The position numbers and the translations under genes were made by a program. Below the pieces are notes generated by a model, which saw only the letters and a program-made list of their open reading frames with translations, did no database searches and was not told the origin of the DNA. A DNA stretch of 64,000 nucleotides, from the NCBI GenBank assembly GCA_964534625.1, contig CAZHRF010000009.1:1-64000 (forward strand). Reading direction: 5' to 3'. Shown here piece after piece: positions 39,233 to 64,000 of this stretch. Position 1 is the stretch's first letter. The number at the start of each line of letters is the position of its first letter. The DNA is from an uncultured archaeon (GTDB lineage Archaea; Asgardarchaeota; Heimdallarchaeia; Heimdallarchaeales; Heimdallarchaeaceae).

Positions 39233-39335
39233 GGGCTAGTAGCTCAGCTAGGTAGAGCAACGGACTCTTAAGTAAGCAAAAAGAACTTGTGGAGTAATCC
39301 GTCGGTCGCCGGTTCAAATCCGGCCTAGCTCGCCA
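39233..39335 (+). tRNA. tRNA-Lys(CUU) with a 26-nt intron at position 37/38 (39271-39296), CCA encoded
   Basis: GGGCTAG/CTAGCTC acceptor stem; ACGGA-CT-CTT-A[intron]A-TCCGT; BHB motif formed by a CTCT/GGAG helix with two TAA bulges. Confidence 0.95.
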
Positions 39336-59600: not shown

Positions 59601-59763
59601 ATGTGAGTCAATTTTTTGACAAATTGTTTTTTTCTTTATTATCATATATCAGTTACTATCAAAACTCATCCTAATTCTGACAGAACAGACGTCTAGCTGC
59701 GTTTACTATGACATCTCTTTTTACTAGTCTATCTTCTTGAAAGCCCTGTCCTTGGGGGTGGGG

Positions 59764-59895
59764 ATGAAAAGAAGAAAAACGATACCAAGTTTAAACATAC
59801 AACCATTTTGTAAGTATGATGTCTTTGTGTACGTGTTTTGGTACCATCTCGAAAACCAAGAGTGGTACGAGACAAAAAGAAAAAGATGGAAGTAG
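59764..59895 (+). CDS. Putative 43-aa micro-ORF inside element B
   Basis: MKRRKTIPSLNIQPFCKYDVFVYVFWYHLENQEWYETKRKRWK; homolog of 22450-22575. Confidence 0.45.
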   Translation: MKRRKTIPSLNIQPFCKYDVFVYVFWYHLENQEWYETKRKRWK

Positions 59896-60002
59896 AAGAT
59901 AGGGGGTACACATTAAACAATAATAATGGGTATACGTATCTACCTAAGTAAGGGTATTGAGGACTTCCGATGTAGAGTCGATACATTGTGTGTACTAGAA
60001 CT

Positions 60003-60120
60003 ATGTACTGTCGGGACGACAGGAACTATAGACGACGCTTGTGAGGAAGAAGTAAGCCCTCATTTTGAGGCTACTTCGTTGAAGCAAGAAACCATCTGCC
60101 TTTAGGCAGTGGTAGTTCAT
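60003..60120 (+). ncRNA. TnpB omega/reRNA-like scaffold (copy B)
   Basis: Homologous to 22220-22340, with conserved hairpins GAAGTA..CCTCA-TTT-TGAGG.TACTTC and CCA.CTGCCT-T-TAGGCAG-TGG. Confidence 0.65.
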
Positions 60121-60813
60121 TCATTCATCCTTTTTTTCTTTTAACTCTTCTAAAGTCAACTCTTTTCCACAAGACTTGTCTCCTTCTGGACAATAACCAA
60201 AGAATTCACAGAATGCACCTGTTTCTTTAAATAATGTCGGGGCAACTTTCCTTACTTCTTTTAACATTTTGATTGCTAGCGTACGTATCTCTTTCTGAGC
60301 TCGTGTGCATATCCTTCTAGCAAAAAATTCAATTAGGGCATGTGCGTTCATAGATAAAATTAGTTGAGTTGATGTGGCATTGGGAAGTATGTAACGGGCA
60401 TCTTCTTTAGGAATATTGTTATTAATCATTTTTTGATAAAAATTGAATAATGCCTCTGAAATGTTTTTATATTCGTCGTAAAAATCAGAATTTTTTATTT
60501 TATCAGGTATAACCACCTTAAAGTTTTCTGCGTTAACGTATCTTTGTGATTGTTGAGAAAAACTCGCAATTCTTTTTCTAACCAATTGATGACTACATAC
60601 GCGGCTAATTCCTGAGATATAAAAGACAAAACTATTATGTTCAATGATTGATAAGTGACCCGATTTTATTATTTTTTGAAGATATTCAGAACTTTTTCTA
60701 TTTGCATTGTTTTTTATATCCTTTAAAAACTGATCTCCTGAATAACATATCACTCCTGCCATTTTAGCTATTAATTCGCTTTCTTCAGGATAAGAGATTA
60801 GATGAACTTCCAT
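60121..60813 (-). CDS. thyX: FAD-dependent thymidylate synthase
   Basis: GHLSIIEH, GISRVCSHQLVRKRIASFSQQSQRYV, EDARYILPNA, R.C.RAQ.EIR. Confidence 0.95.
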   Translation of the reverse strand: MEVHLISYPEESELIAKMAGVICYSGDQFLKDIKNNANRKSSEYLQKIIKSGHLSIIEHNSFVFYISGISRVCSHQLVRKRIASFSQQSQRYVNAENFKVVIPDKIKNSDFYDEYKNISEALFNFYQKMINNNIPKEDARYILPNATSTQLILSMNAHALIEFFARRICTRAQKEIRTLAIKMLKEVRKVAPTLFKETGAFCEFFGYCPEGDKSCGKELTLEELKEKKDE

Positions 60814-61041: not shown

Positions 61042-64000
61042 ATGTCTGATAAACAATCTGGAAAAAGACTTAAAGAAGGGGTAAAATTAAAAACCCGTAA
61101 AGGTATATCGCCCAAACCTGCAATGGTTGAAAAAAAGAGAAAAATTAAAACATCTAAATCGAAAAAACGACCTGTAACGGGCGTGGAAGACCCAAATAAA
61201 ATAAAACGGAAAAATATTATTTTGTCTTCAATTTTTACCGTACTATTGATTGCTGTTATTATTGAATTGTACGTTTATGAATATATACTTCTCCCATTTT
61301 CGGACTTTGCAATGCTTATAATAGAACCGGTTATTCTTACTGCCCTTATTCTAGCTATATTGTTTTCGTTTGAAACTTATAAAACAGAGTTTACACCTAC
61401 CATATTAAGAATATTGCTTACCATAGGAACTTTAATAGTGTTCTTTCCTATAACTCTATATAAACGCCATACGCGCCATAATGTGTGGAGGATATTTTTT
61501 ACTGGATTTACAATTGTGACTTTATTAATGTCCTTTTTCAGTCCCTATATAGGTTTATTCGGAAAAAGAAGATCTTTGATTGGTGGTCCTGGAGAGGATT
61601 TGTATGACGTGGATACTAGTGCTCTATCTGCAGAATTTAATATTAATATAAATATAAACGCAAGTGAATTAAAAGACTTTTTAGACCAATTATTAAATAA
61701 CGCATCCCTTTTAGATCAAGTTACATTAGAATCAAGTGTTGCGAATGTAACTCTAGCTGGTGAGGATATTGGTAACTATCTTTATCGGTACGAAGTATAT
61801 GATGAATATGAGGATGAAGACTGGGAGTTTGTGGCTTCAAGTAATGCCCTTACAACGAGAATTCCTGAGAATCAGAAGGGATCACCAGAAGCTGAGAACC
61901 AGACAAAATTAGGCATCTCTCAAACTGTTTATTCGGCAACTAGTTCTCTAGAGACCTCTCTTCTATCTACTTGGTCTTCTTACTATTTACCCCATATTGA
62001 TATCCCACAGAATCTAGATGCAAATTTACTCGATTTAAATGGCACCCAAAAAGCAAAAAAGGGTTCGACTGATATCAGTTACAATACAAGAGATGAGTTT
62101 GTACTTAGCAGTACAATTTCAACAAATGACATGTTTTCTCCTTTCCAAGGTACATATTATTATGAAACACATTTCATCGGTGATCAAGATTATGAACCAA
62201 TAATATCCAATGCTTTAGATTTTGATTATTATAGTACTTCCATTCAAAATACTATTATCAATGATTATGCACTATTTCTACAAACACCAGATGATTATGA
62301 AAATAGATCGCCATATGTAAAAACATTTGCAGATGAAATTGAAACTTTATTGACTGAAGATGCAACAGTATATCAAGCTATAACTAGCGTTATAAATAGA
62401 GTACTAATGAAGGGAGAACCCACAAGTAAAAGTGAAGAGGGCGATGGAGCAAATAATTTAGCCGCACCAGATGGTGAGGGTTCATTTACGGATTATATCG
62501 CTTTAACAGTGATGGCCTTAAGATTACTTGGTATCCCAGCTAGACCTGTATTGGGATTTGCAATAGGTGAGCCTGATTCTAATGATGATGGCGATTATCA
62601 AGCGTTAAAAATAAAGCACATGTATATGTGGGTTGAAGCTTTAGTGCCTTATGATGATGGCGGCGATATAAAATATATTTGGGGACAATTTCAAGTGGGA
62701 CCCTATGTTACATCGAATTATGAATATGTCTATTGTGATAACACGATGTATTCTTCATATGATATTGCTTTAACTATTTATGAAAATAGTCCTGGAGATG
62801 TACAAACACAAAATATTGAGGGACAAGATGTTTATTTGTTGGATTATGGTATAAATTATACTGTTCAAGCAACAACCACACAAGGCAATGAGAGTGTAGA
62901 AGGGACTATGTTGACTTTTGAGTCCTTTACAACTAGTACTGTAGAAAACACCCAAGACCCAACAACTTTGATAGGTAATGGGGTAGAAATCGGTGTTGGG
63001 AGTGCAAGATCTGATTCTTCAGGCCATGCTATCGTTTATCATGTGTTCAATTCTTCATTTGAAACATTAAACTTGGCAGATCCTTCTAGTACCTCCTATG
63101 TTATATTTGCATATACGGGATTAAGTTATGATGTTGCTCCAATTGCAATATTTCCGAAGGGATATCTTACTGATGTTAGTTTCAATGCAAGTAAACAAAG
63201 CTTACCTGATCCAAATAATCCTCTTGAAACCTATGATTATTATCTTATTCAAAAAGATTGGCGTTATTCTATGAGCACATTTGTATATGAAGATGAAACA
63301 GAAACTACTCCTTTAACCAATCGAAGTATAACGTTTTATTTATTAACTTCAAATGAATTGCAACAGGTCCAAGCGGGAACCTTAACTGATTTCAGTCAGT
63401 TAAATTCAATTGGTTCCACACTAACCGATAATCAAGGAAATGCAACAATAACCAACTTTCATGAAGGAAGTGATGCGTTTGGAGATCTTTCAATCAATAC
63501 TGGATATGCTGTTGCAGCTAGCTATGGAGCGAACTATAGTGCATCGCCAATAATTTATTTAGATGCTTTACAATCAATTATCAATATTAATACTACCTCG
63601 TACAGTTATGGGTCGCCTGGATATTTCTTCCAAGATATAACTGTTACTTTACAAATGGCACCCCCAGATGGAACTGTAGAACCCCTGCCCGATGTGGATG
63701 TAAAACTTTGGATGATCCCTTTGGAGTTTTATGAGGAATATGGTACTTCTTCATTTGAAACAGCTGACGAGTACATATCTTATTTGAAAGGATTAGATCA
63801 ATGGAATATAAACAATTTTGTAAATGGAACCACTAATGAATTTGGTGTGTTTAACCATATTTATCAAACTAATTTTGATGACTATGGGGTGGGTAATTTT
63901 AAAATTGTTACATTTTATAAAGATAGATGGAACGGTTCGGAGACTATAAGCATAAGCTCGGGACCTGCAAGTTTTTCTATCAATGAATCTGAAGAGGTTG
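61042..64000 (+). CDS. Large membrane-anchored protein with transglutaminase-like domain (partial, runs off window)
   Basis: Not in ORF track because there is no stop in the window. Basic N-terminus, ~4 TM, GSFTDY...MALRLLGIPARPVLGF...YMWVEA, then an acidic S/T/N-rich extracellular region. Confidence 0.85.
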   Translation, partial: MSDKQSGKRLKEGVKLKTRKGISPKPAMVEKKRKIKTSKSKKRPVTGVEDPNKIKRKNIILSSIFTVLLIAVIIELYVYEYILLPFSDFAMLIIEPVILTALILAILFSFETYKTEFTPTILRILLTIGTLIVFFPITLYKRHTRHNVWRIFFTGFTIVTLLMSFFSPYIGLFGKRRSLIGGPGEDLYDVDTSALSAEFNINININASELKDFLDQLLNNASLLDQVTLESSVANVTLAGEDIGNYLYRYEVYDEYEDEDWEFVASSNALTTRIPENQKGSPEAENQTKLGISQTVYSATSSLETSLLSTWSSYYLPHIDIPQNLDANLLDLNGTQKAKKGSTDISYNTRDEFVLSSTISTNDMFSPFQGTYYYETHFIGDQDYEPIISNALDFDYYSTSIQNTIINDYALFLQTPDDYENRSPYVKTFADEIETLLTEDATVYQAITSVINRVLMKGEPTSKSEEGDGANNLAAPDGEGSFTDYIALTVMALRLLGIPARPVLGFAIGEPDSNDDGDYQALKIKHMYMWVEALVPYDDGGDIKYIWGQFQVGPYVTSNYEYVYCDNTMYSSYDIALTIYENSPGDVQTQNIEGQDVYLLDYGINYTVQATTTQGNESVEGTMLTFESFTTSTVENTQDPTTLIGNGVEIGVGSARSDSSGHAIVYHVFNSSFETLNLADPSSTSYVIFAYTGLSYDVAPIAIFPKGYLTDVSFNASKQSLPDPNNPLETYDYYLIQKDWRYSMSTFVYEDETETTPLTNRSITFYLLTSNELQQVQAGTLTDFSQLNSIGSTLTDNQGNATITNFHEGSDAFGDLSINTGYAVAASYGANYSASPIIYLDALQSIININTTSYSYGSPGYFFQDITVTLQMAPPDGTVEPLPDVDVKLWMIPLEFYEEYGTSSFETADEYISYLKGLDQWNINNFVNGTTNEFGVFNHIYQTNFDDYGVGNFKIVTFYKDRWNGSETISISSGPASFSINESEEV

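Follow-up and report, generated by a model that had tools for sequence, protein, structure and literature searches.

The window, by which we mean the whole 64,000-nt stretch of Asgard archaeal DNA analysed here, contains two related mini-elements, copy B on the plus strand and copy A on the minus strand, and their features are listed in Table 1. Upon alignment, the two copies were found to be colinear with 78.9% identity over 393 columns (E 1e-87), as expected from the original prediction of diverged homologs of 396 and 393 bp. Copy A lies between a tRNA-Lys gene and an ArcS-like ORF. Copy B is followed by thyX (60121-60813, minus strand), and its predicted guide is antisense to the stop codon and 3' end of this gene. 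The left hairpins, the positions of the TATA-like boxes and the right ends were also found in both copies as predicted, and the right terminus GTAGTTCAT is common to them. The AAAG noted before the left hairpin of copy B was confirmed (element positions 16-19); copy A has AATA in its place. No Rfam family matched copy A or copy B. The middle of copy B can also be folded into a long hairpin, which we rejected because copy A does not keep it and it shows no compensatory change.

Two other features of the window were observed. A tRNA gene at 39233-39332 (+), which was matched by Rfam and missed by ARAGORN, contains an insertion of ~28 nt in the anticodon loop that is probably an archaeal intron. 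A long ORF with N-terminal hydrophobic segments, at 61044-64000 (+), is open past the end of the window and, being open-ended, does not appear in the ORF list.

Table 1. Positions of the two elements, their parts and their flanking motifs in the window.
Feature	Position	Strand	Description
Copy B	59725-60120	+	396-bp non-autonomous IS605/IS1341-group element (PATE)
Copy B target motif, predicted TnpB TAM	59720-59724	+	TTTAC, outside the element
Copy B left end	59740-59763	+	DNA guide AAAG (59740-59743); subterminal hairpin (59744-59763)
Copy B TATA-like box	59790-59797	+	TTTAAACA; predicted; parental tnpB promoter position
Copy B middle	59815-59968	+	Decayed, serially deleted tnpB coding relic
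Copy B middle, best tnpB block	59838-59867	+	Encodes TISKTKSG
Copy B homology to tnpB 3' tail and right end	59969-60120	+	84-90% to the parents on contigs C4 and C16
Copy B omega-RNA scaffold	60006-60120	+	115 nt; zero broken pairs
Copy B scaffold stem 1	60008-60022	+	Scaffold also has stems 2, 3a, 3b and 4
Copy B pseudoknot		+	Stem-1 loop pairs with terminal GUUC
Copy B right end	60088-60120	+	Guide GAAA (60088-60091); hairpin (60092-60112) with TTTA loop
Copy B right cleavage motif	60117-60120	+	TCAT; related elements have GAAT with TCAA
Copy B predicted guide	60121-60136	+	16 nt of flanking host DNA; length inferred from ISDra2 (PMC10097598)
Copy A	22220-22612	-	393 bp; most divergent member (75-80% to the others)
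Copy A target motif	22613-22617	-	TTTAC
Copy A left end	22577-22598	-	Degenerate guide AATA (22595-22598); hairpin (22577-22594)
Copy A TATA-like box	22548-22555	-	TTTAAATA; predicted
Copy A scaffold and right end	22220-22336	-	1-nt deletion in stem 2; mismatches in right-end hairpin
Copy A predicted guide	22204-22219	-	Flanking host DNA

The family in the source genome and its transposition anatomy

A genome-wide search of the source assembly (3.37 Mb in 120 contigs, 89.8% complete), which had been proposed as a check of copy number, revealed 11 complete copies of 389-399 bp. Two further copies are truncated at the 5' end, and six contig ends carry a right-end fragment. The complete copies are preceded by TTTAT (8/11) or TTTAC (3/11), and thus by TTTAY in all cases, so that the predicted insertion after TTAC is correct for both window copies but not for most of the family. 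Similarly, a TATA-like box was present at both predicted sites in the window, but the canonical TTTAAA[CT]A was found in just three of the 11 copies, and seven carry the parental TTTTAGCA. The flanks of the 11 copies are unrelated to each other, and each insertion has a different predicted guide, in agreement with the original prediction. The copies on contigs C38, C33, C19 and C15 are 97.7-99.7% identical, which, judging from this similarity, indicates recent spread.

The family shows several traits of PATEs, namely subterminal IS605-related hairpins, the absence of a transposase ORF and a fixed target motif, and it is present in multiple copies. The copies are not classical MITEs, as terminal inverted repeats and target-site duplications are absent. 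A full TnpB ORF is also absent, and just a TnpB-tail frame of 57-62 codons is open in most copies (8/11); this frame is probably inherited, and in copy B it is a 59-codon frame (MGIR...ETICL, 59926-60105, +) that continues the TnpB C-terminal tail. At least 16 terminal-only PATEs of ~47 bp, in which one hairpin serves both ends and no scaffold is present, were found in the same genome on C2, C3, C7, C8, C15, C21, C25, C27, C30, C31, C32, C38, C41, C42 and C76. These forms match the 52-bp core-deleted PATEs of Haloquadratum, and such terminal-only PATEs can form in place (PMC3119063). In two cases, copy B and the copy on C3 (G000:C3:46003), the element directly abuts the stop codon of a gene that converges on it (window 60121-60123 for thyX), so that both guides are antisense to mRNA 3' ends; this abutment is not general across copies. 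In a DNA search of 40 relatives we found no full-length copy and right-end matches in two genomes, and exact-pattern scans of metagenome contigs for the element middle gave no match. In the nearest relative, the contig stops ~30 nt short of copy A, with the empty-site region beyond the contig end.

In IS608, the tetranucleotides of the DNA guides match the cleavage motifs base by base. Across the source genome, TTAT was found with AAAA 20 times and TTAC with AAAG four times on the left, with a few exceptions, while on the right GAAA is accompanied by TCAT in the source genome and GAAT by TCAA in nine of 10 related elements. Copy A and a few other copies deviate from this DNA-guide rule. Covariation of guide and target has been described for Y1 TnpA substrates (PMC10055086). 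In silico removal of the C15 copy restored a 283-aa ORF, which ends five bases past the joint, and no duplication was seen. No tnpA was found in the 89.8% complete source assembly; genomes of the same family contain autonomous tnpA-tnpB elements with homologous ends. Because of the end anatomy and the guide/target covariation, the mini-elements would be expected to move as single-stranded DNA, by peel-and-paste, with a Y1 TnpA acting in trans.

Origin from tnpB elements and the omega-RNA scaffold

Matching ends flank tnpB elements on C30, C16, C7, C4 and several contig ends, and the ends of the mini-elements are 76-96% identical to those of these resident elements. The parents share with the mini-elements element positions 1-85, which represent the parental left end and spacer, and positions 245/276-396. 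Over positions 245-396 the identity to the parental tnpB 3' tail plus right end is 84-90%, in agreement with the tnpB-3'-tail region noted originally. The TATA-like box occupies the same position as in the parents, 49 nt upstream of the tnpB ATG, and is therefore regarded as an inherited tnpB promoter region. The part between, originally described as a conserved middle, is in fact a tnpB coding relic without covariation. It aligns colinearly with the tnpB coding sequence better than 200 shuffles, although the signal is largely that of one block (positions 114-143, which match the internal tnpB block TISKTKSG at 96%). RNAalifold revealed almost no compensatory change in the middle, and its double changes are concentrated in the left end, stem 1 and the right end. 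As judged from homology, the family was shown to consist of PATEs, derived from a resident tnpB-only (IS1341-type) element of the IS605 group that lost internal sequence in successive deletions. The tails and left ends of the mini-elements are mosaics of parental variants, a pattern that indicates recombination among family members. The C38, C33, C19 and C15 copies carry a C30-type stem 1 on a C16-type tail, and the C3 copy has a C16-type left end.

For 10 tnpB elements that are intact in other genomes, the tails were aligned with the ISDra2 architecture (PMC10097598) imposed. In this alignment 94.9% was paired, compared with 29-47% in slid controls. The pseudoknot was fully paired, and 14 of 30 pairs showed double changes. 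Because the 10 elements are related to each other and helped to set the register, the pairing figure is given as support and carries no P value. A pseudoknot of UGAA with UUCA was superseded by the ISDra2 register (PMC10097598). A covariance model built exclusively from intact tnpB elements outside the source genome gave scores of 73.6 bits for copy B and 57.9 bits for copy A, of 61-71 bits for the resident tnpB parents and of 90-94 bits for the youngest mini-elements. In most copies of the source genome, stems 1 and 2 are separated by an extra 6 nt relative to ISDra2. At the level of conserved pairing and parental alignment, the mini-elements were shown to retain a structurally intact omega-RNA scaffold and the tnpB promoter position. 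The structural part of the predicted guide-RNA cassette, a scaffold retained in non-autonomous IS605-group elements, was therefore upheld.

The predicted functional RNA of ~300 nt was not, as the scaffold is 115 nt long and ISDra2 precursors are 5'-trimmed to ~130 nt (PMC10097598). The functional unit would be the 115-nt scaffold (60006-60120 in copy B) with ~16 nt of flank; as happens in ISDra2, the leader, here the ~185 nt upstream, would be trimmed away. By geometry alone, the guide corresponds to the 3' flank beside a TAM-adjacent donor joint. The scaffold shares with the ISDra2 reRNA (PMC10097598) the length of ~115 nt, stem 1, stems 2, 3a and 3b, a pseudoknot to the terminal UUC, a stem 4 with a UUUA loop and the flank-derived guide. 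In contrast, ISDra2 has TnpA and TnpB in cis and the TAM TTGAT.

Scaffold retention and independent mini-elements in relatives

The scaffold may have been kept without a selected RNA function. In such a passive PATE, with the same origin and TnpA mobility, the scaffold would hitch-hike by the right end, and the family would have been amplified because its ends are good TnpA substrates. Within the source genome, we counted 5 private changes at paired sites of the mini-elements where 9.9 were expected (P 0.07); without the parental-allele filter the count was 8, with 9.9 expected (P 0.34). Diversity excluding copy A was 0.110 in the scaffold and 0.061 in the middle. Selection on the scaffold over the junk middle was thus not significant in this family, as hitch-hiking would predict. 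Every compensatory variant of the mini-elements also occurs in tnpB-bearing parents; since the ends are parental mosaics as well, inheritance or recombination can explain these variants. Passive retention is further favoured by tail homology that begins ~37 nt upstream of the scaffold, by the ~150 nt of junk kept, by the varied sizes of the deletion products, some of which lack stem 1 or the scaffold, by the mosaic tails and left ends, by the broken helper genes described below and by the C-terminal coding remnants known in PATEs (HqIRS71, PMC3119063). It is opposed by the fact that, terminal-only forms aside, the sole amplified derivative has a complete scaffold.

The covariance model search also revealed independent protein-less elements elsewhere in the order, in the genomes G002 and G029. 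G002 contains, near a contig end (L104, G002:C137), a single 227-nt element after TTTAC with a left end, a TTTAAATA box and a full omega-RNA scaffold. G029 contains ~50 copies with a median length of 167 nt after TTAAC (e.g. L114:1421-1585 and L122:1421-1585), which consist of a left end, a short AT-rich spacer and an 85-nt scaffold without stem 3b, the upstream deletion stopping at the 5' edge of the scaffold. In one locus, L187 (G029:C210:9770-10080), the mini-element left end and spacer are joined to a scaffold with a long stem 3b, and by this arrangement it looks like an intermediate form. The G029 scaffold naturally lacks stem 3b, like the engineered ISDra2 variant Trim2, and deletion of stem 3b improves ISDra2 activity (PMC10097598).

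As an ascertainment control, G029 was searched by the left end alone, and all further copies with the mini-element spacer and enough sequence (9/9) had kept the scaffold. Among 44 copies in G029, scaffold singletons numbered 11 against 22.8 expected from the left end and spacer (P 0.005; P 0.04 against the spacer alone), in a sample in which copies are not independent and left ends may recombine. This difference is suggestive of scaffold conservation beyond that of the left end and spacer. The convergence in G029 raises the odds of selection for a working guide RNA in such mini-elements, and as a candidate for a standalone omega-RNA under selection the G029 family is clearer than that of the window. 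Passive hitch-hiking fits less well with an outcome that was repeated independently, with deletion up to the scaffold 5' edge and subsequent loss of just the dispensable stem 3b. Mainly because of this evidence from G029, we consider that selfish retention of the elements, set out below, is likelier than pure hitch-hiking, which is a realistic but lesser possibility. A Y1 TnpA gene (on C71) and numerous fragments of tnpB are likewise present in G029. Two of its mini-elements, L139 and L151 (on C220 and C111), have an identical 20-nt 3' flank, which may reflect duplication, flank capture or an assembly artefact.

TnpB partner, guide targets and possible role of the mini-elements

The RuvC D-E-D residues of the parent TnpB are intact, in the motifs IIAVDMS, VIIEDL and HDRDTNA. 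TldRs, by contrast, are RNA-guided repressors without nuclease activity; they are not known to have transposon ends, and their guides are fixed and directed at promoters. Since all RuvC acidic residues are kept, the parent TnpB is not a TldR, and the proposed TldR-like partner was not supported; a TnpB-type guide scaffold is common to TldR systems and the mini-elements, but the other TldR traits are not seen here. Among the cognate tnpB copies of the source genome, that on C30 has one frameshift, that on C16 has a stop and a frameshift, and those on C7, C4, C27 and C31 are deleted. No intact cognate tnpB was found in the 89.8% complete assembly; however, four 5' parts and one 3' part stay open as far as the contig edge, so the assembly may have missed an intact gene. 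Asgard MAGs supplied the closest TnpB homologs, and the TnpB of a genome of the same family clusters with a Ca. Heimdallarchaeota protein, which supports the Asgard assignment indirectly. An intact 425-aa TnpB-like ORF on C42 was rejected as a partner, as it was unmatched by the cognate-type query and has neither a scaffold hit nor a matching right end. This ORF (L007, from about 7112) represents another TnpB type, and a fragment of like type lies on C19.

According to the original prediction, the insertions would form a dispersed guide repertoire for a TnpB or TldR-like protein; in its strongest reading, this repertoire would be domesticated and serve to defend the host or to regulate its genes. 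In favour of it, no two copies have the same guide, a promoter-like box is present in each, action in trans is known for standalone omega-RNAs (PMC10691335), and the guides of copy B and the C3 copy (2/11) start exactly at a convergent stop codon. However, 28 guides searched against the source genome gave no TTTAY-adjacent match better than random 20-mers, and four guides had no exact TAM-plus-guide match in viral contigs. In addition, the cognate TnpB is not catalytically dead in its residues and the genes assembled for it are either pseudogenes or cut, no full-length copy of the element was found in the 40 relatives, and the guides are host flanks. We therefore consider a functional repertoire very improbable, and equally so a host-retained guide bank that would program a TnpB in trans, for defence or regulation, against targets outside the assembly and the searched viral collection. 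By construction, each guide matches just its own empty donor joint, and the donor joint is the known target of IS605 TnpB.

The copies could also persist by acting in cis on their neighbours, by promoter read-through from copy A into the ArcS-like ORF or by antisense RNA from copy B against thyX. Copy A ends 11 nt before this same-strand ORF, and copy B adjoins the thyX stop. However, neighbouring genes show no fixed orientation or distance from one copy to the next, TTTAY is tolerated at T-rich intergenic sites, and cross-species conservation was not found; a cis effect is the least probable of the explanations considered.

The explanation that we favour, with a little more than even confidence, is that the mini-elements are selfish and borrow TnpA and TnpB in trans for their own retention. 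If the element is transcribed, a precursor of ~300 nt would be trimmed to ~130 nt, and, as expected from IS605 biology, the trimmed RNA would load a nuclease-active cognate TnpB made elsewhere. The loaded TnpB would cut the empty donor joint of the element, TTTAY plus the 3' flank, and repair from the sister chromosome would then restore the insertion. The benefit would be to the element and not to the host. As every helper gene in the assembly is either broken or cut, it may also belong to the past. Selfish retention is weakened by the non-canonical box in 7/11 copies and by the terminal-only PATEs without scaffold.

Similar elements are known from other organisms. The PATEs of Haloquadratum walsbyi (PMC3119063) likewise have near-terminal hairpins, a 4-5-nt target motif and neither terminal inverted repeats nor target duplication, are too short for a transposase, and form a homogeneous expanded family with terminal-only forms of ~50 bp; one of them, HqIRS71, retains the tnpB C-terminal region. 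Unlike these, the present family has an Asgard host, a complete ISDra2-type scaffold shown in the tail and the parental promoter position. The PATE-like ISGst mini-elements of Geobacillus stearothermophilus (PMC10055086) are also protein-less IS200/IS605 elements, often encode omega-RNAs that depend on TnpB in trans, their TAM/TEM covary with the DNA guides, and the guide points at the donor joint. In that species the mini-elements occur beside intact TnpA and TnpB, and the parental elements were shown to be active, whereas the helpers in our source genome are broken or unassembled and known from sequence alone. The standalone omega-RNAs of OMEGA systems (PMC10691335) are also mobilised, effector-less and found in genomes with effector loci; they were shown to work in trans, whereas we infer this for the mini-elements.

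PATEs often encode omega-RNAs that require TnpB in trans (Meers 2023, PMC10055086), and the role of standalone omega-RNAs has been described as unknown (PMC10691335). As PATE-encoded and standalone trans-acting omega-RNAs had already been described (PMC10055086, PMC10691335), the novelty originally claimed did not hold, and the family is a new example of a described kind of element and no new class of system. This family, and more clearly that of G029, provides population-level material on selection for guide RNA in protein-less IS605 elements. The question for such families is whether TnpB is parasitised for the element's own retention. In addition, the 85-nt scaffold of G029 is a natural counterpart of ISDra2 Trim2 and a candidate compact TnpB guide.
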